Sequence record: NZ_CP040051.1 | Origin: a plasmid | Reading direction: 5' to 3' (one strand) | Length of the DNA: 64,000 nt | Part shown: positions 4,110 to 29,700 of the stretch, in pieces | Numbering within the stretch: position 1 is the first letter of the stretch | How the letters are laid out: every line of letters starts with the position of its first letter | Made by a program: the position numbers and the translations under genes | The notes under the pieces: generated by a model | Told to the model about the DNA's origin: nothing | What the model saw: only the letters and a program-made list of their open reading frames with translations | Database searches by the model: none

Positions 4110-4896
4110 TTACTTCACCAGTGTTTTCAATCTCATCTTCATCTGAAGAATCTAGATTCGATTTCAAAGTGAACTTTTTATGTTCTTTAATAATCTTCTT
4201 AAGAGCTTGGTGTTCACTGATCCCGTGCATCTGTGATTGCTCTAAAACCCAACTATATGATGGAGTATCAAGGATCTTCTCAATATCAGTTTTAAGTGCA
4301 CGACTTCTTGCTGAACGATTATCTGTATTCAATAGCCCTTCAATATTAGACATCTTTCGGATGCGCTTTACATCACATTTACGAATATCAAGAGTTTTAC
4401 CGATCGAAAAATCACTATTGCCGTCTTGAACCATGTTCGCATACGGCTTTACTTTGCTGTAAAGCTGAAGACTATTAATAATGTGGTCATGGCCAGTTAC
4501 AACCATTCGTTCAATATATGGCGCAGTATCCAAGTCATCGATACGCTTATTACATTGAGCAACGATATCCTGAAGAACTTTTGGATCATTGATATCGCAA
4601 ATCAACCGTGAAAGTTGGCGCGTTTTATCAATAAGATGAGAAGTACCATCAATATGGAACTGACTTTGAATTTTAGAGAATTCGAGATTGTTTAGTATTG
4701 ATAAAGCAATCACAAATTCAGCTTTTAGGTCAACAATAAGGTCAAAGTTCTGTGAAATCGCTCGACAATAACTCTGTACTGGTAAACGACGTTCAACAGT
4801 CCAAATAGCAGTATCAAAGAAATTAATGAGATCGGCTAATTGATTGTCATTGAAAAGGGGATATTGCTTATTTGAAGATGAAAGAGGGTTATGCAA
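4102..4896 (-). CDS. Hypothetical protein, probably the 3' part of a frameshifted longer gene (see findings).
   Basis: The ORF begins with TTG. An upstream 37-codon ORF (start 5072, good RBS) joins it in frame if the T8 run at 4987–4994 gains one base. Confidence 0.45.
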   Translation of the reverse strand: MHNPLSSSNKQYPLFNDNQLADLINFFDTAIWTVERRLPVQSYCRAISQNFDLIVDLKAEFVIALSILNNLEFSKIQSQFHIDGTSHLIDKTRQLSRLICDINDPKVLQDIVAQCNKRIDDLDTAPYIERMVVTGHDHIINSLQLYSKVKPYANMVQDGNSDFSIGKTLDIRKCDVKRIRKMSNIEGLLNTDNRSARSRALKTDIEKILDTPSYSWVLEQSQMHGISEHQALKKIIKEHKKFTLKSNLDSSDEDEIENTGEVNG

Positions 4897-12643: not shown

Positions 12644-13114
12644 TTAACGATGGATCAATGTGATTGTTTTATCATTTTCATCTACAGCAACAGTTGCAGA
12701 GTTACCAAGTTGTAAGCCAACATCTTTAATGAGATCAAATCCCGTTAATTTGCGTTTGCTAAAGTTTACGATTGGGAGCTGATGAATGTTACCAGCTTCA
12801 ATAAAGCGATATCCGAAGTGATAAGCTGCACTTTGAAGGAGGGTCTGAGGTTCCCCGACATAGTCAACACGAATAACGTCAGTTCTAAAGCTACGTTGAC
12901 GTAAAGCTAAATCTTCGTTAAAGGCTTTTTTATCTAACGCATAAGTTTGTTGTTCAGCTACAGCATCTTGAGCCGCTTGACTCAAAATACCTAAAGGCGA
13001 TTCAACATCAAATTTAGGGCTTGGAACGTAGTAGTAGCTTTGGCATCCAGTCAAAGTGGCAACAGAGATACAAAGGACAGTGAGTGAACGACGAATTGAA
13101 GGTACTATTTTCAT
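12644..13114 (-). CDS. DotD/TraH-like lipoprotein.
   Basis: Lipobox LTGCQ after a signal peptide. First gene of the dotDCB-like operon. Confidence 0.5.
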   Translation of the reverse strand: MKIVPSIRRSLTVLCISVATLTGCQSYYYVPSPKFDVESPLGILSQAAQDAVAEQQTYALDKKAFNEDLALRQRSFRTDVIRVDYVGEPQTLLQSAAYHFGYRFIEAGNIHQLPIVNFSKRKLTGFDLIKDVGLQLGNSATVAVDENDKTITLIHR

Positions 13115-14050
13115 AATTACACCTAGTGTTTGCTATTGTTAGTAGAAGTGCTCAAGGCAGCTTCGGCTTGTAGCAACAAGTATAAATTCTAAATTTTAAA
13201 AAATATATAGTATTAAAAAATAAAAACGCAGAATAAGCGGTCTTGAGTTCATATAAGTTGCGAACTAAAAACGTCATATCAAAAGTTATTGCTAGTTGAG
13301 CTAGTAAGGTTAATTTGTGAACAGTTTCTAATACGAGAAAAGACGAAAATTCTTTAAAAAATCAAAAAAACGATTAATTTGATCTTAAAAGTATGAAATG
13401 TAATGAATAAAAAGAATTTATTTCCAAATAATCTTGAAAACTTGTAGTTAAATTTAAATAAATCTACAAATAAGAAAAACAGATTAAATATTTGGACAAA
13501 AGTCGACAAGTCTAACGTCTAATTAAAATCAAAATAGAAATTTTTATAATGTAAAGCGTAGTATATAACATGGAGAAATTTATAGAATTATTTGATTTTA
13601 TTAATATTATTTTATTATTTTAATGAAAATAACTGATATAAGATATAATTTTTATTCCAATAATATAAGTATGAATAATATTCTATATATTTTATAGAAA
13701 TGAATATTGTTAAAAAATAAAATTTCTTATTTTTTCAATTAAGAAAATAAAGACCATTTAACTTTTTCTATTTATGTAAATAAGATTTAAAAAAATAATT
13801 AACATGTAGCATCACGTGAATGGTTGAAAGTTATATCAAGTTAAATGCTAATGAATGTACTTAGTATCTGCTTAAAAGTGGAATTTAATAAAGTTAAGGA
13901 TGGGTAACGAGCAAGGAGTGTTGCAAACGGTAAGTTTTTAAGCAAAACTGCAATCTGATGAGACATGATCTAGATCGAAGTGAAAGCAGTTGAGCAACAC
14001 TCCGTATCTGATAGGTGTAATAAATTTAAAATTATCGTGGTGTTTGAATT
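13115..14050. promoter_or_regulatory. About 0.9-kb AT-rich non-coding region carrying divergent promoters and an inverted repeat (GAGTGTTGC … GCAACACTC around 13916–14007). Possibly an origin-like region.
   Basis: No ORFs, extreme AT content, and flanked by divergent operons. Confidence 0.35.
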
Positions 14051-15955
14051 ATGAAGGCTGGCTCGGAATTAGAATTCAATGCAAAAAAATATCCAAAAAG
14101 TATTAAAGGCTTGGAGACACGTGTATTTGATTATTCTGAGAAAACAATAATCAGATATACCAATGTTTGGAAAAAACTTTTAAAACAATATGGGTTAGAA
14201 GATCAAGTTTTGGTAAATCCAGAATATACGCTGGAAACAGTAGTAAATAATCTTATTTCTGAATATGGAAATAATGAATTGCGAAACTCCACTTTTAGAC
14301 ACTATCGATCTGCACTTATTCATCGTATGGGGGTGATCTTGAGTGAACAAAAGAGGGATGGTGAGAAGCTTGTAGCATTGCCTAAGCTGGCAAGACTTTT
14401 TGAAAGTTTGAAAGCAGTTGAGGCGACTGATGATAAAAAACAGCCGAACCGATCTAGCAGTTCGAAGCTCAAGTACTTTCCAAAAGATCTTTATGAATTT
14501 GTGTTAGGCAGCAGTTTTAATTTGAACAGGTCTAATTTGGGGTTGATGTTAAAGCTGTTTATAGAAGCAAATACTATGATTGGATTGAGGCCAGTGGAGT
14601 GGCAAAGCTTAAGGTTGGCATGTGATGTTGAAGAGAGATGCTTATCTCTTGTGGTCGATAATGCAAAAAATACTCAGGGTAGAGCGAACGGCGACATAAG
14701 GATTCTTAATATGATTGAGCCTGATCCAATCAAGCTTAAGAATCAATTAAGGGCAATACTTGGGTTTAAGAGATTGCTCGATTTAGAACTGGAGGCAAGA
14801 GCTAGAAAGTTCTTAACTGAAAGAAGTAGAGAGACTAATGAAACTTATAAAATTTACATCGCAAGTAAAGAGCCAGACAGTTTTGAATTTGAGTTCATTC
14901 ATTGGAAAGGTTCCCAAACCGTTAACTGTATAGAAGCCGTAAACTGTATAAAACCTGAGAATGGAACTGGAGAAACCGTAAACTGGATTTCTACTGAAAA
15001 CGAACTTGAGCAAAATATTGAAGATAGAACAAACGGCGCATTACCTTCCATAAACGGACCAGATACCGTAAACAGAATATCGTCCGGACATGGCCAGAAT
15101 ACGACTGACGGCAATAAAGCTGGCGGTAGTGAATTTAACTATGAGCGAGTGATTGAAGACGGCGCTCATTCTTCCGTAAACGGAATAAATACCGTAGACA
15201 GAATATGGGCCGTAGACGGAATAAATAAAGTTGATGGGAGTGATCACGGCGCATTACCTTCCGCGAACGGACCAGATACCGTAAACGGAATAAAGGCCAT
15301 AGACGGAAATAATACAGTTGATGGAATTAACGCCGTTGCCGGAATAAAGGGGGGTGGGACAAATCAAGCCATTTCTACTGCTTCTACTGCGCCAGCTCCA
15401 GAGTTGACCGACTTCGGATTTAATTCAGTTGCCGGAGAAATACAGCAAACTGGTAGAAATACCGATCACGGAAAAATGGCTGCCTTATTGGGTGCTTATA
15501 ACGCCGTGGTAATTGAAAGTTATGTTGATCGTTATGGCACGATTCAATATGCACTATGTCAAAGTGTGATGGATTCATTGCAACGTAAATTAAAAGATAT
15601 GAGCAATGAATTTTATGAAAAGAAAAAGTTTGGTTTACCTGAAGAGTTAGCTTCAAATAAAGCAAATGCTACGATTTACAGTACACGCCATCAAGCGGTA
15701 GCTAATCGAAAAAAATATAAGTGGAAAGAAGAAGAGGTCGCAGGTTGGTTTGGGCATGCAAGTGTTCAAACGGCGTCAAGACACTATGGTGTGGCTGGTA
15801 AAGGTTGGGGGGATAAACCTATGTTTAGAACTTCGAAATTTAGTCTTGAAAAAGTCAGAATGAGAGAGCAGCAAGTTAATCAAACCAAACAGCTCACGGA
15901 AGAAGATGTATTAAATTCGGTTTTATCTGATAAAGATTTAGATGATCTATTGTAA
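14051..15955 (+). CDS. Tyrosine-recombinase-like protein (634 aa) with a ~150-aa in-frame repeat insertion.
   Basis: Box I-like IGLRPVEWQSLRL. The C-terminal segment YSTRHQAVAN...GWFGHASVQTASRHYG matches the box II R-H…GH…Y pattern. A hexapeptide/18-nt tandem array lies between them. Confidence 0.55.
   Translation: MKAGSELEFNAKKYPKSIKGLETRVFDYSEKTIIRYTNVWKKLLKQYGLEDQVLVNPEYTLETVVNNLISEYGNNELRNSTFRHYRSALIHRMGVILSEQKRDGEKLVALPKLARLFESLKAVEATDDKKQPNRSSSSKLKYFPKDLYEFVLGSSFNLNRSNLGLMLKLFIEANTMIGLRPVEWQSLRLACDVEERCLSLVVDNAKNTQGRANGDIRILNMIEPDPIKLKNQLRAILGFKRLLDLELEARARKFLTERSRETNETYKIYIASKEPDSFEFEFIHWKGSQTVNCIEAVNCIKPENGTGETVNWISTENELEQNIEDRTNGALPSINGPDTVNRISSGHGQNTTDGNKAGGSEFNYERVIEDGAHSSVNGINTVDRIWAVDGINKVDGSDHGALPSANGPDTVNGIKAIDGNNTVDGINAVAGIKGGGTNQAISTASTAPAPELTDFGFNSVAGEIQQTGRNTDHGKMAALLGAYNAVVIESYVDRYGTIQYALCQSVMDSLQRKLKDMSNEFYEKKKFGLPEELASNKANATIYSTRHQAVANRKKYKWKEEEVAGWFGHASVQTASRHYGVAGKGWGDKPMFRTSKFSLEKVRMREQQVNQTKQLTEEDVLNSVLSDKDLDDLL
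14909..15362. repeat. Tandem array of 18-nt units (cores CCGTAAACGG, CCGTAGACGG, CCATAGACGG) lying in frame inside the recombinase-like gene.
   Basis: Read directly: cores at 15174, 15192, 15210, 15268 and others, spaced 18 nt apart. A higher-order ~225-nt duplication is visible (GALPS[IA]NGPDTVN repeated). Confidence 0.7.
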
Positions 15956-16038
15956 ATAAAATTGCATTCAGGTATTTTTAAAAATAGATATATCTTTTTT
16001 TAAAAATACGGTGGCTGGTATGCTGTTCGATACAAAAA

Positions 16039-16221
16039 TTGCTTTATTTTGTGGTTTGCTTGGTGGCATTTACAGTGCTATTGCCTACTTTGAATACCTA
16101 TTTTGAAATCCCTAATGTTGAACTATATGAGAGTATGAAAGCGAGACTTTTGCTGGCGGCTATCATCATTGCTGTGATTAGTGGGCCACTCTCATTTTTT
16201 TATTATTTATACGGCGGTTGA
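16039..16221 (+). CDS. Small membrane protein (60 aa).
   Basis: Two hydrophobic helices. Weak call. Confidence 0.3.
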   Translation: MLYFVVCLVAFTVLLPTLNTYFEIPNVELYESMKARLLLAAIIIAVISGPLSFFYYLYGG

Positions 16222-16227
16222 GCAGCA

Positions 16228-16560
16228 ATGAAGATACCTCTAATCATAATTGTGGTTTTATGCACTTTATATTTTTTAAATCTTTCATTGAAATCAAATA
16301 TGAAAGACATTCACAAAAACGAGATCAGCGATAAAGCGTATTTTCGTTTGAGTAGTGAATATAACTACATCAAGGAAAGTCCTGCTGGTGATGAAATGAG
16401 AGCTAAGATCATCAATGGCTTAGTGGATGGGATGATAGATGGTAACGAATATAAATCTATTATTGGAGAAGAGCCTGACTATGATCTTAGTACTGATGCT
16501 GAAAAAGCAACATACAAAGAGGCAAAACAAAAATTTATTGATGAATTTAAACCTTCATAA
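16228..16560 (+). CDS. Small N-terminally anchored protein, paralogue of the next gene.
   Basis: N-terminal TM segment. Shares AGDE…, Y(K/T)EAK…(I/L)(D/K)EFK blocks with the 16576 ORF. Confidence 0.5.
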   Translation: MKIPLIIIVVLCTLYFLNLSLKSNMKDIHKNEISDKAYFRLSSEYNYIKESPAGDEMRAKIINGLVDGMIDGNEYKSIIGEEPDYDLSTDAEKATYKEAKQKFIDEFKPS

Positions 16561-16575
16561 ATAGAGGCCATATTA

Positions 16576-16902
16576 ATGAAAAAGCTTTTTATAGGGCTTG
16601 TAATAATAGTAATTGCGCTGATCATCGTTACACAATACTTCAAAGCTAGAAGTTACAAAGTTGAAGTTGATGATAAGGGTTACTACATACTCAATGAAAT
16701 GTATGAGCATGTTAAAAATAGTAAGGCTGGAGATGAGCTTGAAATACGGCTTCACACGGCGTTGGATGATGGGATTATCACTCAGGCTGAATATACATAC
16801 CTCACGGACTCTGAATTGCCATCGATGGCAGTTCAAGCCAGTGATAAAGAATATAAAGAAGCCAAGCTAAAAATTTTGAAAGAGTTCAAAAAAGTTTCAT
16901 AA
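16576..16902 (+). CDS. Small N-terminally anchored protein, paralogue of the 16228 gene.
   Basis: Same architecture, with RBS and ATG 15 nt after the previous stop. Confidence 0.5.
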   Translation: MKKLFIGLVIIVIALIIVTQYFKARSYKVEVDDKGYYILNEMYEHVKNSKAGDELEIRLHTALDDGIITQAEYTYLTDSELPSMAVQASDKEYKEAKLKILKEFKKVS

Positions 16903-16952
16903 ATGAAAGTTTGTATCTATAGAACAGCTTAGATCCGTTCTCGGACTAACAT

Positions 16953-16987
16953 ACAGTAAACGGTATTAGTGACGGTAACGGATAAAG
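16953..16987. repeat. Intergenic repeat unit R1 (ACAGTAAACGG…GACGGTAACGGATAAAG).
   Basis: Member of a motif family shared with the array inside the recombinase-like gene. Confidence 0.6.
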
Positions 16988-17040
16988 TGACTAAGACAAA
17001 TTAATCTTAGACATAACATGATATTTATTGGAGACTTTAA

Positions 17041-17487
17041 ATGATAGAAAACTCACCTATCCCACTAATTGATAAATTAGTAAAAGAAAAAAATTTTGTT
17101 CTTCTAACTTGGGATGCTCGCTATTCCAGTGGGGCATGGGCATGTTGTTTGCCTTATCTTAATCAATGTGAAGTTGTTTATGAGGCTTCTGAAGATGGTG
17201 ATACTCTGATGATCCCTAAAATGGAATATTTACTTAATACTAATTGGCTTCCCATTATGGATGGCTCAAGCGCTATGGATGCCTTAGAAAAGTTAGAGAC
17301 TCGTTTAGCAACATTGCCAACTGATTTTCTTGCTGACAATGATTGGATTAATGCAACTGATGAAGCCATAAATTATTTAAGTAGAATTTCAAAAAAGTAT
17401 GAAGATGATGATGGTGGAATGGATGGAAAACTAAAACCTCTACCTATTGACTACAGAGAGATTAAGTTTCCTCAAGGCTTGTCCTAA
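17041..17487 (+). CDS. Hypothetical acidic cytoplasmic protein (148 aa).
   Basis: Clean ORF with an RBS. Confidence 0.5.
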   Translation: MIENSPIPLIDKLVKEKNFVLLTWDARYSSGAWACCLPYLNQCEVVYEASEDGDTLMIPKMEYLLNTNWLPIMDGSSAMDALEKLETRLATLPTDFLADNDWINATDEAINYLSRISKKYEDDDGGMDGKLKPLPIDYREIKFPQGLS

Positions 17488-17489
17488 AT

Positions 17490-17525
17490 CAGTAAACGGT
17501 ATAAACGCCGTGGACGGATAAAGGC
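17490..17525. repeat. Intergenic repeat unit R2 (CAGTAAACGG-N8-CCGTGGACGGATAAAG).
   Basis: Starts 2 nt after the stop codon. Two 10-bp palindromic cores 18 nt apart. Confidence 0.6.
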
Positions 17526-17561
17526 TCTCCCCAATAGACTTAACTTATATAGGTGGCTTAA

Positions 17562-17864
17562 ATGAAAACAGATGATGTTATTGAACACATCGAAAATCAA
17601 AATGTGACAGCAGTAGAATTACTCGATGAGTTTGATCCGAACTTGCAATTCAAATTCGCAAAAGCAATGACGGCGTTAAAACAGATTATTGATGATGTTC
17701 GGATTCTTTATCCAGATGCCTCTTACTACATTCAAGATGATGCTTTTTATCTAATGCTAGGAGATAGCCATTCTGGTGATCATAAACAGAATGCAAATAC
17801 AAATTTAATTGCATTGACTGATAATCATAAATTGGCAGGGTGTATCTCTGGTGGAGGATTCTAA
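17562..17864 (+). CDS. Hypothetical protein (100 aa).
   Basis: Clean ORF. Its stop overlaps the next start (TAAATGA). Confidence 0.45.
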   Translation: MKTDDVIEHIENQNVTAVELLDEFDPNLQFKFAKAMTALKQIIDDVRILYPDASYYIQDDAFYLMLGDSHSGDHKQNANTNLIALTDNHKLAGCISGGGF

Positions 17865-18191
17865 ATGAATATGTCAAACGAATATAAACCAATGCTTATC
17901 AAGCACAATAAGTCACAGCCACGTATTAAAAGTATCGAGGACAGGGTATTTCAAGTCTTTGGCATTTTTGCGCTAATTGCTTTTGGGTTAACAACGTGGG
18001 ACCTCTTTGCCGCTGGGGAGCTCTCAGTTCTAAGTTTTAATATGACTTCTGAGGAAATACATCAGTTATCTGAAGCGTTTATGGAAGCGCTCTTTTCCCG
18101 TGTATTTATGTTGGTCATTTTTATTTTCTTCGGTGGTTTTGCTCTACTTAATTTAATCAAACTTATTCAATTGTTTGATTCTGGCAAATAA
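17865..18191 (+). CDS. Small membrane protein (108 aa).
   Basis: Two TM helices. Confidence 0.45.
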   Translation: MNMSNEYKPMLIKHNKSQPRIKSIEDRVFQVFGIFALIAFGLTTWDLFAAGELSVLSFNMTSEEIHQLSEAFMEALFSRVFMLVIFIFFGGFALLNLIKLIQLFDSGK

Positions 18192-18203
18192 ATTACGGCG
18201 GCG

Positions 18204-18263
18204 AATTCCGGCCACGTAAAAGTACAGTAATCGGCGTACCAATTTCGACTACGAAAATATTAA
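18204..18263. repeat. Intergenic repeat unit R3 (AATTCCGG…ACAGTAATCGG…AATATTAAG).
   Basis: Shares the AATTCCGG and AATATTAAG ends with unit R4a. Confidence 0.55.
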
Positions 18264-18269
18264 GAGGAT

Positions 18270-18641
18270 TTGAAAATGTTTAAAAGTGAACATGTGGTGA
18301 AAGAGCAAGATTTAGATAAGCTAATTAAAGAAAATCCCTATACTCAAAAAATAGTCCAGCATTTGAAAGATTTTGAAAACATTGAAATAGGGATTGTCTT
18401 ATTTATGGGTTTACCAGTTGCTGACCACGATTCCATAAATAAGCTACATCTTAAGTTGCATGGATATATTGAATGTTTATTGGAAAATGAGATGTGTACG
18501 CAATCACAGTGCAATCTATTGAAAGCGTCATTAGATGAAATTCATTTTAACAAGGTAAAGCCACGTTCATCTTCAACACATTCAAACGACGTGTATATTA
18601 CGGATGAAGATGTGCGCCGTTCAGGTGAACTTGGTTTTTAA
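18270..18641 (+). CDS. Hypothetical protein (123 aa).
   Basis: Clean ORF with an RBS. Confidence 0.5.
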   Translation: MKMFKSEHVVKEQDLDKLIKENPYTQKIVQHLKDFENIEIGIVLFMGLPVADHDSINKLHLKLHGYIECLLENEMCTQSQCNLLKASLDEIHFNKVKPRSSSTHSNDVYITDEDVRRSGELGF

Positions 18642-18661
18642 AGACATCATACAGCGTAACC

Positions 18662-18721
18662 AATTCCGGCTACGGAAAAATACAGTAAACGGGCTTGGGT
18701 CCGGACACGGCGAATATTAAG
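18662..18721. repeat. Intergenic repeat unit R4a (AATTCCGG-CTACGG-…-ACAGTAAACGG-N9-CCGGACACGG-…AATATTAAG).
   Basis: Read directly from the sequence. Confidence 0.65.
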
Positions 18722-18748
18722 TTTTCAGTTATGACAGATGAAAGGACT

Positions 18749-18800
18749 AATTCCGGAAGCGGAGGAATACAGTAAACGGAAATAGGTCCGTACACGGAAA
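18749..18800. repeat. Intergenic repeat unit R4b (AATTCCGG-AAGCGG-…-ACAGTAAACGG-N9-CCGTACACGG).
   Basis: Near-duplicate of R4a in the same orientation. Confidence 0.65.
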
Positions 18801-18833
18801 CACAGCTTCAAACGCCGTGATAATTTAAAAATA

Positions 18834-18860
18834 GACCAGCTTTAAAGCTGGTTTTTTTGT
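18834..18860 (+). terminator. Rho-independent terminator ending the small-ORF array.
   Basis: gACCAGCtttaaaGCTGGT stem followed by T7. Confidence 0.6.
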
Positions 18861-19010
18861 GCAAGCTATTTATAATTAGAAACTATAAATTTTTTAAAAC
18901 TAAAAAGTTTTCTGAAATATTTTTATTTTCTTAGGTAATTTTAAAAAAAAGATATTGCATATTTTTAAAAATACTAAGACAATAGCCACTATAAGCAACT
19001 GACACTAGAT

Positions 19011-19352
19011 GTGCAGTTTAATTCAAGCTCGTGCCTTAATAATGACGAGATGAGAACTATGAAAGAGTCACAACAACAAGACATTGAACTGTCTTCTTCT
19101 TCAGATGAATACAGTACGTGGGGGAATCCTCGCAATTCTCTGAATGTAGATGTTAGAACTAAAGAGTTCTATTCAAATCTGCTTACGCGCATTATCAACT
19201 TCAAGATTATTGTTCTTGTTGCTTTGACATTAGTTGTACTTGCACAAGTTGCCTATATCGCTGTTAAAAGAAATTTTGAACAGCTTGTTTTTGATGATGG
19301 TTCAAGTACTCCTTGTATTTATAACCCTCTAACTAAAACCTTTCGGCAATAA
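19011..19352 (+). CDS. Small inner-membrane protein, first gene of the plus-strand transfer operon (DotJ/IcmM-like by position).
   Basis: Single TM helix (IIVLVALTLVVLAQVAYIAV). The true start is probably an internal Met. Confidence 0.4.
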   Translation: MQFNSSSCLNNDEMRTMKESQQQDIELSSSSDEYSTWGNPRNSLNVDVRTKEFYSNLLTRIINFKIIVLVALTLVVLAQVAYIAVKRNFEQLVFDDGSSTPCIYNPLTKTFRQ

Positions 19353-21242: not shown

Positions 21243-22874
21243 ATGAGTGCTGAAAATAATACAAATAAACCAGATGACATCCAGTCTTCGCAAGAGCAAT
21301 TCACTGGTCAAAATGAAGCGACTCACTCGACTCATAATTCCGATCCTGAACGCAGGGATCCATTGACGCCTGAATATGAGACGTTTGAAGAAAATCAGAC
21401 AGCAACTTGGATACCAAGAAATGATGCAGATAATCGCATCAATATGAAATTTGGTGATAAGTTCAAGCTCTACTGGCGTGAAAACGGTGTGTTCCGTTTT
21501 ATCATCATAACTGTTGGTGCAGTAATTCTTCTTATCCTATTTTTCCTCATGAAGTTCATCTTCAGACAGGATGCGCCGGAACAAATTAATCCGGCAAATA
21601 TTAAGATGGATGCTCCGCAAAGCAATACTAAGCAAGCGGAATATGTATCACAAGAGCAATATACAGCTATACGTAAACAAGAAGAAATTCTTGCAAGACA
21701 GGCGGCGGCTAAAGGCGAAAGCTATACACCACGTAATCTTGTTATTGCTCCAACAGATGCTCAAGGTCAAGTGGTATTACCTTCAACATCTAATGCTCAA
21801 TACGGCGCTATGAACCCGCAACAAGCTGGTTTAATGAATAGTACTGGCCAATTAACTTATGCAAATCCAGCAGTGGCAGGACAACAAGGTCAGATGCAAC
21901 AGCAGGGAATGCAGCAAGGCCAACCGCAACCTCAATACATACCAGTTCAAACACAAGATTACGTAAGTGATGTTGCTGCGAATTATGAGCAAAATAACAA
22001 TCAATTTGCGAACTGGTTTGATGAAGAAAGTCAACGCCAAATCACTGCAAATAAAGAGCAAGAACAAACAATTAACAGTTTTGTTCTTAAACAGATTGGT
22101 CAGATCACGGGTGCTGAGTTTGACGCTAACGGAAATATGATTCCGAAGAGCAAAGACAAAAAAACTAAAGCCGGTTCATACGCACAAAAAACCTATTACA
22201 CGGCGCCAGCAAGCGCAGACAATTCCGGAAACGGAAGTAATACAGGTAACAGTGCAAACAATGCTCAGGATGCTTCGCCGTTTTCCGCTAACGGAAATAA
22301 TCCAGTAAACGGTAAAAAGTCCGGAACCGGAAAAGTGTTGATTCCAGCCGGAACTCGTTCAATTGCTCGTTTATTGGGTGAAGTGAATACAGATGACGGC
22401 AACCAAGTCTTTGCACAAGTTACCAATGGCCCATTAAAAGGCCGCAAAGTGTTTGGAACAGTTTCTAAGTCAAATGACAATATTCAATTCAAAATTGATC
22501 GTGTCTTGAGTGATGGTAAGAACAAAGAATTTTCTATCGACGCCGTGGGTCAAACGTTGCAAGGCTCATATGGAATGGCGACATATATCAAACGCCATAC
22601 TTTACAGCGTTATGGTGCATTAATCGCAAGTGGTATTGCACAAGGTTACGGTCAGGCATATAGCCAAGCTTATGGCCAACAAACTTATACAAGTGGTGCA
22701 ACAGTGATTGAGACTAAGGATCCATCTGGTGAGCGTATTGCCGGAAACATCATTGGTCAAGTTGGCCAAAATGCAAGTCAGGAAATTCAGCAAATCGGGC
22801 GTAAACAAGTGACATATATCACTCCAGTCGGCACCGTTTTCTACATTTTCTTTAACCAAGATGTGACTGAATAA
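21243..22874 (+). CDS. DotG/IcmE-like (TraO/VirB10-like) core-complex protein.
   Basis: N-terminal TM helix, a Q/N-rich middle region, and position after the DotH-like gene. Confidence 0.45.
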   Translation: MSAENNTNKPDDIQSSQEQFTGQNEATHSTHNSDPERRDPLTPEYETFEENQTATWIPRNDADNRINMKFGDKFKLYWRENGVFRFIIITVGAVILLILFFLMKFIFRQDAPEQINPANIKMDAPQSNTKQAEYVSQEQYTAIRKQEEILARQAAAKGESYTPRNLVIAPTDAQGQVVLPSTSNAQYGAMNPQQAGLMNSTGQLTYANPAVAGQQGQMQQQGMQQGQPQPQYIPVQTQDYVSDVAANYEQNNNQFANWFDEESQRQITANKEQEQTINSFVLKQIGQITGAEFDANGNMIPKSKDKKTKAGSYAQKTYYTAPASADNSGNGSNTGNSANNAQDASPFSANGNNPVNGKKSGTGKVLIPAGTRSIARLLGEVNTDDGNQVFAQVTNGPLKGRKVFGTVSKSNDNIQFKIDRVLSDGKNKEFSIDAVGQTLQGSYGMATYIKRHTLQRYGALIASGIAQGYGQAYSQAYGQQTYTSGATVIETKDPSGERIAGNIIGQVGQNASQEIQQIGRKQVTYITPVGTVFYIFFNQDVTE

Positions 22875-22883
22875 CAATCGAAT

Positions 22884-23753
22884 TTGGAGAAATTAAAAAT
22901 GTCAAACGAACCACAACAACCTAATTATGATGACGATTTTGACTATCAGACACAGGCACAACAACCAGTTGATTCGACTGATAGACGTAATAAGTTCATT
23001 TTAATTGGCGCAGTTATCTTCGCTATTTGTGTTCTTACGTTCATGTTTATTTCAACAAAAATGAAAAAAGCACCACCGAAAGATCAAACTATTGAAGCTC
23101 CAGCTCCAGATCAAACGGCATATCAACCACCGCCACAACCAGTGCAAATGCAGCCACAACAACCGGTTGGATATTCGCAAAATTCAATGGTGGCCGTGCC
23201 AGAAACGATGCCAAAGTCTACTGATCCAGTGAACGGTACAGTGATGGTTAAAGATATGACTGGTAAAGACGTTGATGCTTATTCCGTGGACGGACAAAAC
23301 GCCATTATTCAATTCAACAATGCTAATGGTTTACAGCCGATCCCATTGAATATGCCAGCTCCAGTAGCGCCAAATATCAATAATCAGGCGAATAATTTTA
23401 ATGAGCAACGTGTGATTACGTTAGAGCAAGAAAATTCACAGCTCAAGGCTCAAAACAATTCACTACGTACATTGGCCCAAGATCAGCAACTTAAAATTGG
23501 ACAGTATCAAGCATTGATTAAAAATGCACGCGCAAACAACGGCGCAAATATTGTGCAATTACGTGAAACTAAAAAAGGTGTTGCTTTGAATAAAGCATTA
23601 CCACGTGGACAAGAAGTAGTAGCGACTGTAGGCAATCGTGTTTGGTTATCTGACGGTAAGCAATATAACTCATATGGAGTAGGCCAACGTCTACCAACGG
23701 GTTATCGCGTTCTTGATGTAAATGAAATGGCTGGCGAAGCTTCATTTAAGTAA
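22884..23753 (+). CDS. DotF/IcmG-like (TraP-like) bitopic protein.
   Basis: One TM helix, a proline/glutamine-rich region and a coiled-coil segment, in the expected position. Confidence 0.4.
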   Translation: MEKLKMSNEPQQPNYDDDFDYQTQAQQPVDSTDRRNKFILIGAVIFAICVLTFMFISTKMKKAPPKDQTIEAPAPDQTAYQPPPQPVQMQPQQPVGYSQNSMVAVPETMPKSTDPVNGTVMVKDMTGKDVDAYSVDGQNAIIQFNNANGLQPIPLNMPAPVAPNINNQANNFNEQRVITLEQENSQLKAQNNSLRTLAQDQQLKIGQYQALIKNARANNGANIVQLRETKKGVALNKALPRGQEVVATVGNRVWLSDGKQYNSYGVGQRLPTGYRVLDVNEMAGEASFK

Positions 23754-26754: not shown

Positions 26755-29700
26755 GTGAGATCAGCTATGGTAAGCACTGCGACTCCAAAAAGAGCAGATA
26801 CTAGAAGTACTGCGAATAATTCTAAAGCGAACACCAAGCCAACTAAAGTGAAAAGACGCTCTTCTTTAGTGTCTTCACTTGAGCTGATACTCGTATCGCT
26901 TGCGAAAATGTTTAAAGCTTCAGCAAATGACTATTGTGAAATAGAAACGGTTGATGGTCGTTTCAATTTGGTCATGCAAGACGGTACGATGGTTACGATC
27001 TTGAAGTATGAAGGTATTCGTTCAACAATTGATTATCACCAAACATTTATGGGTGAAATTGACCGCTTAAATAACTATCTGAAGAATAATTTAAATGCAG
27101 TAAACAGCCATAAGATTATGGTGTTATTTAGACGTGATGATGCAGTAAATTCAGAATTAAATCGTATTGTTGATATCCAGAAAAATACAGCACGTAAAGT
27201 CAATATTCGTCTGGATTCTTTCATTGATGAAATGCGTGATGTTTATGCACCGTATATTTACGATGAAGAGATCTATTTTGCTTTAATGACCAATCCGAAA
27301 ATTTTGGATAAATCCGAAATTGCCGGTGATTATAGACGAACTGCTGATATTGTTAAGAAATACAATATTCCACCGATGTCAGATGCACAGAACCTTTTAC
27401 ATGGCTTGTCTTCGTTAAAATCAATTCATGATACATTCGTATCTGGTGTGATTAGTGAACTTGAACATCAAGACTTTAAAGGGGTTGTAGATAAGCTAGA
27501 TGTAAGTGCTGCTATTACGGCAACTGGCCGTATGATGAATCCACGCTACTTTGATCCAAACTTTAAAGCATTTTTGCCGAATAGTGGAATGCCTATTCCT
27601 TTACGTTGGAAAAACCGTACTGATCCTCAAGATCTGTCTCACGTTTTATATCCTCGTATTTCTGATCAATTAATGACTCAGACGATTACTCCATTAAACA
27701 GTAAAGATAAAGCCGGAGACATCACTGTTCCAAAAAGTGCTGTTCAATGCGGTGATATGGTCTATGTTCCAATTCCTTTAAAAACACCTCCATCACCAAG
27801 TTTTTCAGGCACATCTTCTGTAATGCCTACATTTATTGATTTCTTCGACCGAATGAATCAACAAACAACTGAAACATCAGATGGTTCAAGTCGTGCAATT
27901 CCTTATGCCGTCTCATTTATGTTATCTGGCGATGGGATGGCATCTATCGGTATCAAACGAGCCGTAACGGCGGTAGTAGGCTGGCAAGGAGCTGCAAACC
28001 AGCAAATTAAGGCCGCTGGTGATTCATTGCAGCGTTATAAAGATTATGGTGGTTGTGTAGTCGGTTTACAGGTTTCGCTCATGACTTGGGATGAAGCTAC
28101 TCCAAGAGGTATTGAGCGTTTACAGATTCGCCGATCTAAACTTTGGCGTGCTGCACAAAACTGGGGACATGCCGTTCCACTAGAGCGTACAGGAGATGCT
28201 GTTAAAGCTTATTTAACTCATTTTCCTTTATCTACTATGCATCATGCGCCACTTTGCCCAGCACCTTTACCTGATGCATTGCATTTACTTCCTCTTGACC
28301 GGCCAGCTTCCCCATTTAAAAAGGGTACAATGGTACAACGTACACCTTGCGGAAAATTAATTCGTATCGAGCACTTCTCTGAAGAGCTGGCATATAACTA
28401 CACCATTATTTCCGGTACGATGGGTTCCGGTAAATCGATGCGTATGAACGATGAGCTGTTTGAAGCTTGTTTGGCGGCCGGTCTAGAACGCTTACCTTAT
28501 ATCTTTATTTCAGACGTTGGTGTGTCATCTTCAGGTCTGGTTTATGGCATCCAGAATGCTTTAGATCCTTCACGCAAACATTGGTGCGTGTATAAGCGAA
28601 TCTCGAAGAGTGCTAAGGACGCAATTAACCCGATGGAAACTGCGGTTGGTCTTCAGTATCCATTATCAAACGAGTTTGATCAGATCCGCGCATTCCTTGT
28701 AACGCTTGTTACTCCAGCGGAAAACGAACATCCTGAACCTGAGATGAGCGCGGTAATCTCTTTGATTATTCGTGAAGCATTTAAATTCTTTGCTACTGAT
28801 AATGATCAAAGTCAGCCAAAGATCTATCAAACAGGTCAGTCACATGAATTAGATCTACTTTTACGTGAATTAAGAATTTCATTATCTGAAACACTTCCGT
28901 TGCATGATCTGGCTTTATTGTGTCATCAACTTGCTGAACAAATTGTTTCTAATGAAGAAATACAACAAGTTAGAAAGAATAAGCTTTTACGTGCACGTAA
29001 TTTGGCACACCGTTATGCAATGCCAATTTTGAGTGACTTAATTACGGTTGCCAAGAAAGAAGAAATTCAGCGTATTTATGGTGATTATAAAACCTCACAC
29101 GGCGAAAATATTCTTGATGCAGTAACCCGTTCTCTTTCTCAAGCAGCAAACGATTACCCTAACTTTAGTACGTTTACTCAATTTGATATTTCTGACGCGC
29201 GTATTGCTTCTGTGGATCTGCAAGACGTAATTGTTAAAAACAACCGTAAAAATAACTCATTGTTCTTCCAGATCGTGCGTATGTTCTATAAAAAACGTAT
29301 CGCATACAGTGAGGAAGACTTAACCCGTGGTGAGATACCTAAAGATTATCTTGACTATTACAGCAATTTAGTTGCAGAGCTGAAAATCGATAAAAAATAT
29401 ATGGTTTTCGATGAGATGCACAACATTAAATCTGACAACTTTATGATTGCTGAACTTGAGCGTGACAGTCGTGAGATCCGTAAATGGGGTATTGCTTACT
29501 ACTTAAGTTCACAATATATCAGTGACTTTGGCATTCTTACCAAAGCTGCCAGTCGTTTTGTTGTATGTTCTCAAGGTTCACCTGAAGAACGTAAAGACAT
29601 TGTGAAATACTTACAACTTACTCCAGCTCAAGAAAAACGTTTAACTTCCATTGTGGGTTTACGTTCATCTGGTATGACGTACCTTTCTAAAGTGATTAAC

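Follow-up and report, generated by a model that had tools for sequence, protein, structure and literature searches.

Composite repeat elements of a small-gene array on Acinetobacter Dot/Icm-type plasmids as candidate recombination joints

Introduction

The 64,000-nucleotide (nt) stretch of record NZ_CP040051.1 that was analyzed here, hereafter called the window, belongs to an Acinetobacter Dot/Icm conjugative plasmid of the pAB3/pA297-3/pAB04-1 type. It contains an array of small genes punctuated by composite repeat elements, which combine a short motif, present in both orientations (A and its inverse A'), with repeats of 17-18 nt (B), and which also occur inside three coding genes. These A/B elements are real and conserved, and they are apparently undescribed; a literature search found no description of the A/B repeats. 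We tentatively favor the reading that recombination joins the modules of a cassette-like small-gene array at these elements, which are possibly used by the recombinase encoded beside it, and rate this at rather less than an even chance. That recombination at the elements is site-specific is something we infer.

Plasmids of the pAB3, pA297-3, pAB04-1 and pNDM-AP_882 types are major carriers of multidrug resistance in Acinetobacter and control host traits, for example type VI secretion. In the window, the array region is flanked by a divergent dotDCB cluster (minus strand, ending at 13114) and a dotIHGF cluster (from 19370), and the order is a recombinase-like gene, the open reading frame (ORF) ORF634, then the small-gene array with its elements, then dotIHGF. 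A study of pAB3 described dotDCB and dotIHGF as a Dot/Icm-like conjugation system regulated by GacS/A, and the interval between the two clusters lay outside its scope (PMC10746170). This interval has so far been labelled merely 'hypothetical proteins'. Positions 14000-19000 of the window are 99.9% identical to pAB04-1 (NZ_CP012007.1), and the region matches pAB3, pA297-3 and about 50 other large Acinetobacter plasmids, typed as MPF_I (mating pair formation type I), at 96-97% identity in four blocks. For the pNDM-AP_882-like lineage, the comparison set consisted of plasmids plus contigs from Logan, metagenome-assembled genomes and metagenomes. Individual sequences are labelled L002, L004, L015, L028, etc.

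Results

Intergenic units share a three-core layout

Five intergenic units had been predicted from the sequence alone, and all of them were found where they had been placed, on the plus strand. When CAGTAAACGG was searched with at most one mismatch, the window contained 18 copies against 2.5 expected, a number reached in none of 100 shuffles, and the five units are five of the six best copies. The predicted kinship with the array inside the upstream gene was also recovered, as a repeat search grouped the units together with the 18-nt array of the gene at 14051-15955. When the five units were aligned with three of the in-gene repeats, two copies from dotG and the units of two other lineages, one common three-core layout emerged, in which AATTCCG-N5-GG is followed by ATACAGTAAACGG and then by CCG-N3-ACGG, at a spacing of 17/18 nt. 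The repeat B underlying this layout is 17-18 nt long and has the core CCG-N4-CGG, a quasi-palindrome that often reads TTCCG-N4-CGGAA.

Several details of the units had to be revised. Unit U1 carries three B cores, at 16935, 16954 and 16972; the start first proposed, 16953, leaves out the first of these, hence the span becomes approximately 16931-16987. The second of the two cores that the original prediction ascribed to every unit begins with an A in U1 (ACGGTAACGG). Moreover, U1 starts 29 nt after the preceding stop codon (51 nt when counted from the start first proposed), which breaks the suggested rule that units begin 2-20 nt after a stop. U2 (17490-17525) consists of a B core at 17490 and an A' (CGCCGTG, 17506-17512) that overlaps a second B core at 17508. 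U3 (18197-18263) opens with the A-like sequence ACGGCGGCG, has cores at 18208, 18225 and 18245, and ends with AATATTAAG; a single mismatch is present in the main core (CAGTAATCGG), the third is degenerate (TTTCGACTACG), and the first has CGT at its end, where CGG had been proposed for the longer units. U4 (18651-18721) begins with a degenerate A, CAGCGTAA, which reads CACGGCGTA in pAB3, and has cores at 18666, 18683 and 18701, with the motif A of the next element at 18706-18712. U5 (18749-18821) has cores at 18753, 18770 and 18788 and is closed by an A' at 18813-18819, and not by AATATTAAG as had been stated for the longer units. The A at 18706 and U5 make up a complete gene-less A-B3-A' element, and U4-U5 are tandem gene-less copies. 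All of these units lie on the plus strand, as does the intrinsic terminator (18833-18860) that closes the array; it had been proposed at 18834-18860 and indeed has a stem at 18833-18854 followed by a T run.

Motif A delimits a composite element

The motif CACGGCG/CGCCGTG was missed in the first reading of the sequence. By reading related plasmids, it could be seen that the units are parts of a composite element consisting of motif A, approximately 10 nt, two to five B repeats and, often, a closing A', where A is CACGGCG(C/T)A and A' is T(A/G)CGCCGTG. These elements measure 90-350 nt and have terminal inverted repeats of 7-9 bp. The window contains 12 copies of CACGGCG/CGCCGTG against 2.5 expected, and the eight that lie between 15245 and 22547 form four convergent pairs. 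The 7-mer is invariant in more than 25 copies, in both orientations, and shows no covariation.

The units had been called structured, which turned out to be only weakly true. Single units fold no better than shuffled sequences (z from -1.6 to +1.0), for which reason the description was dropped at that scale, whereas in the longer elements A and A' close the minimum-energy fold in all five cases tested (z from -1.6 to -5.0, two of the five below -4.5) with a GC stem of 7-9 bp. Because this pairing is short and the 7-mer never varies, motif A is better explained as a sequence-specific site in both orientations than as an RNA helix. A scan of the whole window against Rfam gave no match. A 24-nt inverted repeat that brackets the recombinase gene and the array (14025-14048 / 18807-18830) is not conserved in other lineages and was therefore treated as chance.

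Elements occur in frame inside three coding genes

The in-gene array of ORF634 (14915-15510, plus strand) starts with three inverted B copies at 14915-14990, continues with three super-repeats of A-like and B sequences that start at 15033, 15159 and 15246, and is closed by an A' at 15502-15508. It encodes HGA...xVNGIx peptides, and this repeat-encoded centre is hypervariable in length, with homologues ranging from 518 to 686 amino acids (aa); the homologue P0002 lacks exactly one super-repeat of 213 nt. The original prediction also overlooked in-frame copies in two genes of the dot cluster. The DotG/IcmE-like gene (21243-22874) contains a complete in-frame A-B-A' element at 22199-22547 (plus strand), with A at 22199, B cores at 22225-22321 and A' at 22541, and the following DotF/IcmG-like gene (22884-23753) contains two in-frame B-like cores, at 23227 and 23284 (23227-23293, plus strand). 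The copies in these three unrelated proteins are free of stop codons and located in poorly conserved regions that vary in length.

Codon usage in the copies is unusual. In the repeat region of three lineages, 26 of the 45 [N/D]-G codon pairs are xAC-GGA, where approximately 4% is expected from background usage (AAC 35%, GAC 22%, GGA 14%), and in the conserved parts on either side, these genes have AAT/GAT-GGT. In addition, the dotG copies bear the core variant of their own lineage, TTCCGG-N3-CGG in the window and TTCCGTAGATGG or TTCCGCAAACGG in the pNDM-like lineage, so that lineage-specific variants are common to coding and non-coding copies. Judged from the sequences, the coding copies are constrained at the nucleotide level, beyond what the proteins need. 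In the matching frame, the intergenic units encode TVNG-type peptides like those of the in-gene array, and then run into stops. An explanation of the intergenic units at the peptide level was rejected, since similar DNA trivially translates alike and the units do not stay open.

The elements are confined to four places on one plasmid family

The same element grammar was found in the lineage of the window, in the pNDM-AP_882-like lineage and in a third lineage represented by L015, the recombinases of which are approximately 50% identical. Two whole plasmids, pAB04-1 (169 kb) and pNDM-AP_882 (147 kb), were scanned using a unit profile together with a weight matrix for B. In both, the elements occupy the same four places: the middle of the recombinase gene, the array of small genes, the 5' portion of dotG (the two cores in the next, dotF-like gene being counted with it) and a distant intergenic locus. 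In pAB04-1, 43 of 53 strong B sites fall within 9.15 kb, and in pNDM-AP_882 this is the case for 35 of 49 within 6.5 kb, which amounts to roughly 5% of either plasmid.

The distant locus, which we refer to as the third locus, is located at ~149.2-149.9 kb in pAB04-1 and ~120.7-120.9 kb in pNDM-AP_882. Here, B repeats at 21-nt spacing flank a promoter-like AT-rich region on both sides, and in pAB04-1 the copies on either side of this AT-rich centre face outward. In both lineages the locus is bracketed by a 16-nt inverted repeat (AAAATAGCCTAAGCAG / CTGCTTAGGCTATTTT), at 27392-27822 of L011 (~149.5-149.95 kb of pAB04-1) and at 20698-20955 of L024 (pNDM-AP_882). An invertible promoter switch was considered and rejected, as 62 of 62 related plasmids are collinear at this locus. 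An origin of vegetative replication (oriV) was rejected as well; the cumulative GC skew is monotonic and uninformative. The clusters as a whole do not qualify as iterons or a centromere either, since their spacing is 17-18 nt (21 nt at the third locus alone) and they do not lie beside parAB, parM-like or rep genes.

In 185,579 species-representative genomes (one per species), the strict three-core pattern matched this plasmid family alone. The genome-wide spread that would mark a repetitive extragenic palindromic (REP)-like element was thus not seen for the strict pattern, looser chromosomal copies not having been searched, and a genome-wide REP or bacterial interspersed mosaic element was rejected on this ground and because each plasmid has only four loci, with the same reservation for looser copies on A. 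baumannii chromosomes. One 241-kb linear record, NZ_CP125670.1 (L005, L020 and L021), carries the recombinase gene and a composite unit at two separate places, which is possibly due to a cointegrate or a duplication in the assembly.

Array content differs between related plasmids, with a constant right junction

The original prediction proposed to look for the same unit beside different small genes in related plasmids, and this is what pAB3 and the pNDM-AP_882-like lineage display. In pAB3, ORF148 of the window is missing, and a single hybrid unit is found, the left part of which corresponds to U1 and the right part to U2; the switch between them adjoins CGCCGTG. Further on in pAB3, an ORF of 63 aa replaces U3 and ORF123, and similarity resumes at CACGGCGTA, the counterpart of the degenerate A of U4. 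Based on clustering of ORFs and mapping of motifs, the array of the pNDM-like lineage has four positions with elements between them. Position 1 is occupied by family F6 or F4, sometimes preceded by F13, and position 2 by F3-F1 in every array. Position 3 holds F8, F12, F25 with F12, nothing, or a remnant, and position 4 holds F5 or nothing. At two of the positions, alternative genes occur in at least five combinations. F4 is common to the window, where it is the tandem pair ORF110/ORF108, and the pNDM-like lineage, and F1 also occurs in the L015 lineage.

At these sites, breakpoints fall within elements, and all variable segments have their right end directly at the 5' edge of CACGGCG. The insertion point of F25 is exactly 5' of CACGGCGCA, F8 is located between A' plus 7 nt and the same CACGGCGCA, and the empty site in L036 reads ACGCCGTTGGTATT|CACGGCGCA, i.e., A', 7 nt, A. 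F12 ends at its own variant, CACGGTGTA, and a 257-nt deletion in L027 ends at CACGGCG. The segments with the 63-aa ORF of pAB3 and with ORF123 have their right end at the 5' edge of CACGG, like the four preceding cases of F25, F8, F12 and the L027 deletion. The unrelated families F6 and F4 read motif A in different frames, and both end in GCACGGCGCAAA. In L038 and L039, F5 was lost through a crossover from one B repeat to another. No target-site duplication was found at the junctions examined, and no new insertion site was found in about 120 related plasmids. Arrays disrupted by insertion sequences (L012, L013 and L002) were uninformative.

The adjacent gene encodes a divergent tyrosine recombinase-like protein

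ORF634 (14051-15955, plus strand) has a conserved N-terminal part (residues 1-280) and a conserved C-terminal part (475-634), split by the hypervariable repeat-encoded centre. It has no match of its own in Pfam or NCBIfam, integrase and integron-integrase models included (E up to 0.1), and no sequence match in the Protein Data Bank (PDB). In an alignment of 10 homologues, R180, K206, R546, H569 and Y579 are invariant. A profile search retrieved more than 1000 proteins, mostly of 300-460 aa, that match in the N-terminal and C-terminal stretches; 3 of 10 sampled hits match PF00589 (Phage_integrase), one of them above the cut-off of Pfam. Some records annotate the gene as 'integrase'. The AlphaFold model, with a mean predicted local distance difference test (pLDDT) score of 43, was too poor for a fold search. 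The conserved residues and remote profile matches agree with the recombinase-like label that the gene had been given, and through the profile hits ORF634 can be placed, probably and only remotely, in the tyrosine recombinase superfamily. Across seven lineages, no conserved recombination site emerged upstream of this gene, the common words there being AT-rich only.

In four distant lineages (L028, L029, L031 and L033), a tightly packed recombinase-ORF100-dotI-dotH-dotG operon, located opposite dotD, begins with the gene for a homologue of 434-481 aa, and none of the four has the small-gene array. L028, the one that was scanned for motifs, has no A motif and no B cluster, and its operon is otherwise syntenic. 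Since the recombinase gene comes first in the dotI operon of lineages that lack the array, it is an ancestral component of this type IVB system. The array of the Acinetobacter plasmids is inserted between the recombinase gene and the ORF100 of the operon, and so far array and elements have been seen only together.

Genes and other features of the array

The small ORFs were described as lying on one strand, and they are indeed all co-oriented, between one promoter-like region and one terminator. The former contains an AT-rich palindrome (GTATTTTTAAAAATAGATATATCTTTTTTTAAAAATAC, 15972-16009), promoter- or operator-like by its appearance and conserved in other lineages. A related copy at 18936-18975 precedes the ORF113-dotI operon, and the palindrome is also found at the third locus (L011, ~27590-27620). 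It may be a common promoter or operator of the GacA-dependent dot operons.

The first array genes of the window are tandem paralogous ORFs of family F4 (16228-16902, plus strand), encoding 110 aa (16228-16560) and 108 aa (16576-16902); in some pNDM-like plasmids the F4 homologue at position 1 is a lipoprotein-like ORF of 126 aa. All three lineages have a conserved small palindrome, CTTTCAT(A/T)AATGAAAG, which coincides with the stop codon of the first array gene or genes or closely follows it, at 16896-16913 in the window, 9172-9190 in L004 and 3857-3875 in L015. ORF148 (17041-17487, plus strand) is a variable module that 8 plasmids of the window type have and those of the pAB3 type lack. It encodes an acidic protein of 148 aa without a family match. 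Homologues are carried by plasmids of Shewanella and Pseudomonas (43-46% identity) and by many plasmids of Bacillus (25-31%), and judging by this range it appears to be a widely travelling plasmid gene. ORF100 and ORF108b (17562-18191, plus strand) are an adjacent pair with no unit between them, the latter encoding a membrane protein. This array ORF100 matches phrog_27273, a family of unknown function, and has relatives in phages; otherwise, the small ORFs gave no informative match in Pfam, NCBIfam or PHROG. ORF123 (18270-18641, plus strand) is the variable module for which pAB3 has its unrelated 63-aa ORF together with the loss of U3, and a distant homologue is located elsewhere on pNDM-like plasmids, beside an operon associated with a type IV secretion system. 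Beyond the terminator, a conserved ORF of family F2 (19011-19352, plus strand) precedes dotI, and in the distant lineages F2 directly follows the recombinase gene.

In the third lineage, the small-gene array of L015 (Logan contig ERR10188141_4575) contains at 4316-4525 four copies of a 28-nt repeat (reverse complement GTTCACTACCGTATAGGTAGCTTAGAAA), which we take to be of the type I-F CRISPR (clustered regularly interspaced short palindromic repeats) kind. With its three spacers of about 32 nt, it looks like an orphan mini-CRISPR array.

Discussion

How the elements could act as recombination joints

In the reading that we tentatively favor, Acinetobacter Dot/Icm-type plasmids would have had an ancestral recombinase-ORF100-dotI-dotH-dotG operon, into which the array was inserted later. 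Strand exchange would take place at or next to motif A, in a site-specific manner, and might be performed by the adjacent tyrosine recombinase ORF634, with the B repeats acting as accessory binding sites. Gene-less elements, including the in-frame copies in ORF634, dotG and the dotF-like gene, would be 'empty' insertions, which in proteins persist only in flexible linkers that can accommodate them. This reading is ranked first because it is the sole one to cover four facts together, namely that the elements stand after genes and not in promoters, that they are tied to the inserted array, that the right junction is constant across reading frames, and that gene-less elements exist. The cassette-like array of the original prediction therefore stands in part: the content of the array varies, units flank different genes and breakpoints lie in units; site-specific exchange and a part for the recombinase in it are putative.

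Several observations weigh against recombination joints. Neither an excision product nor a circular intermediate or an inversion variant has been seen, and the related plasmids are collinear at the third locus, all 62 of them. At least one event, the loss of F5, is a plain deletion from repeat to repeat, and reassorting alternatives between conserved flanks needs only homologous recombination. Similarity must resume at any conserved element that follows a replaced gene, so the junction rule is inflated, and the left junctions are not at one constant motif. A homologue of F8 occurs on an unrelated MOBF plasmid without any element, from which it follows that the elements, unlike attC sites, are not carried along with the genes. 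The copies in three coding genes and at the distant locus are not predicted by a simple cassette picture, and fit binding sites or a selfish repeat at least as well. Finally, as the recombinase predates the array, its native role may be unrelated. A more specific version, which we consider unlikely, is a non-integron system of gene capture that had not been recognized before, in which a tyrosine recombinase from a type IVB operon inserts or exchanges small genes and gene-less elements immediately 5' of CACGGCG, with the B repeats as accessory sites, and in which elements inserted in frame into the recombinase, DotG and DotF-like proteins remodel their linkers.

Other explanations of the elements

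Possible, though on the unlikely side, is the alternative already named in the original prediction, binding sites for one protein. The elements would then be clustered sites on double-stranded DNA for a plasmid protein, e.g., a global repressor or silencer, a nucleoid-type or a partition protein, and homologous recombination between the repeats would produce the exchanges as a side effect. A comparison is offered by the KorB operators of IncP-1 plasmids, located in promoters, between genes and inside genes. Both motifs are conserved as sequence and not as base pairing, B being quasi-palindromic and A invariant without covariation, the core variants are shared by coding and non-coding copies of a lineage, the repeats at the third locus surround a promoter-like region, and the plasmid encodes ParB, KorB-domain, TetR, helix-turn-helix (HTH) and H-NS proteins that might bind such sites. 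However, the promoter regions of dotD, the recombinase gene, the array and dotI contain no copy, a different AT-rich palindrome being present there, the 17-18-nt spacing is out of helical phase, and the clusters are not beside par or rep genes. Binding alone also leaves unexplained why non-homologous genes end exactly 5' of CACGGCG in different frames. Distinctly unlikely in our view is a selfish miniature repeat bounded by terminal inverted repeats, comparable to a miniature inverted-repeat transposable element (MITE) or a Rickettsia palindromic element (RPE), that spreads locally, inserts in frame where protein linkers tolerate it and promotes rearrangements without a function for the plasmid. 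Such a repeat would account for the size of the elements (90-350 nt) and their 7-9-bp ends, for the stop-free copies in length-variable regions of three proteins, for which RPEs are a precedent (PMC10969869), for the tandem gene-less copies U4-U5, and for the absence of elements from L028 and of the array from all four distant relatives. It fits less well with only four loci per plasmid and a strict pattern confined to one family among the 185,579 genomes, with the lack of target-site duplications at the junctions examined, and with the fact that no transposase partner is evident. Moreover, the motifs are invariant while the flanking proteins have diverged by ~50%, which argues for selection or ongoing homogenization.

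We give little credence to a role in the transcript, as intercistronic stem-loops of the REP kind that stabilize or process the polycistronic RNA or as sites for an RNA regulator such as CsrA, an option raised by the response of the dot operons to GacS/A. The units do lie between cistrons, just after stop codons, the A...A' elements fold with a GC closing stem, in two of five cases with z below -4.5, many B copies read ACGGA at 18-nt spacing, and both dotDCB and dotIHGF are GacA-dependent (PMC10746170). On the other hand, Rfam has no matching family, single units are no more stable than shuffles, A and A' do not covary, variants of B often break the small hairpin, and the in-gene array starts with three copies that point against the direction of transcription. 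With only 0.15 bit at the base after GG, there is no conservation of GGA, and a CsrA sponge was rejected for this reason. That the intergenic units are decaying relics of the repeat-coding parts of the recombinase gene or dotG, copied by illegitimate recombination while the array was assembled and now without a role, is hardly probable at all. Their TVNG-type peptides in the matching frame are consistent with such an origin, and P0002 indicates that unequal crossing-over within the in-gene array does occur; yet an invariant 7-mer and a three-core order kept in three lineages that are ~50% diverged would be unexpected for non-functional DNA, as would the constraint on the coding copies at the nucleotide level beyond protein need.

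Comparison with known systems

The A/B element works most like an integron attC array. In both, a tyrosine recombinase gene is located at one end of co-oriented small genes that mostly lack promoters of their own, and behind every gene or gene pair stands an element that varies in length and has short inverted core motifs as its ends. Stop codons can fall inside the element (F6 and F4), gene-less elements occur, and array content differs between close relatives. It is nevertheless not an integron (the original prediction had likewise set it apart from a canonical one): integrase type, cores, hairpin and gene orientation all fail. ORF634 is not an IntI, matching no integron-integrase model at E up to 0.1. 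It is co-oriented with the array, all on the plus strand, whereas integrons have a divergent integrase gene with attI and the Pc promoter in between. The cores are CACGGCG/CGCCGTG here and RYYYAAC/GTTRRRY in attC sites, and the interior consists of direct 17-18-nt repeats with a closing stem of 7-9 bp, where attC is one long imperfect hairpin. In addition, only the right junction (at CACGGCG) is constant here, the left being variable, and the elements do not travel with genes and have copies inside coding genes.

According to two reports, modules bounded by pdif (XerC/XerD) sites are a known route for shuffling small modules in Acinetobacter plasmids (PMC5790767, PMC9947245). No 28-nt site of the XerC/D type was found in the window at up to three mismatches to the consensus ATTTCGTATAA-N6-TTATGTTAATT. 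A pdif module was rejected on this result, and because motifs, spacing and partner recombinase differ. The shufflon of IncI plasmids, which are also MPF_I, combines the recombinase Rci with sfx sites, and resembles the present case in having a tyrosine recombinase on a type IVB conjugative plasmid and short asymmetric repeats in coding sequence, some of them inverted (PMC11852207). However, here there is no pilV context, the units are mostly direct repeats, and ORF634 has no Rci or Phage_integrase match of its own. A shufflon was rejected, since no inversion polymorphism was seen among the related plasmids, which are collinear both in the array and at the third locus. The AATTCCGG part of the unit may bear some resemblance to sfx.

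RPEs are inserted in frame in unrelated proteins (PMC10969869). Like RPEs and MITEs, the elements are short, have inverted ends (7-9 bp here), and occur both between genes and in frame in unrelated proteins, where they add peptides at tolerant regions; the combination of terminal inverted repeats and in-frame coding copies was found in ORF634, dotG and the dotF-like gene. Unlike them, the elements are located at four loci of one plasmid family and not genome-wide, and no target duplication was seen. Conserved repeats that punctuate small accessory genes on conjugative plasmids are also seen in two other systems. CUP (conserved upstream) repeats stand among such genes in the leading region of IncN plasmids and have been linked to mosaic arrays, and KorB operators of IncP-1 plasmids are found between and inside genes. 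The differences are that CUP repeats carry promoters and are located upstream of genes, and that KorB sites are single 13-bp palindromes. We know of no sequence similarity between the A/B elements and CUP or KorB sites.

What the elements may mean for the plasmid family

If the elements are true recombination sites, they would provide conjugative plasmids with a second, integron-independent way to collect small genes beside their transfer machinery. The candidate cargo would then be genes for entry, exclusion or anti-defence, and the recombinase that is conserved in this type IVB family would have a role. Even under more modest readings, an invariant 7-mer and a repeat that are common to intergenic DNA and three coding genes point to an unknown sequence-specific factor.

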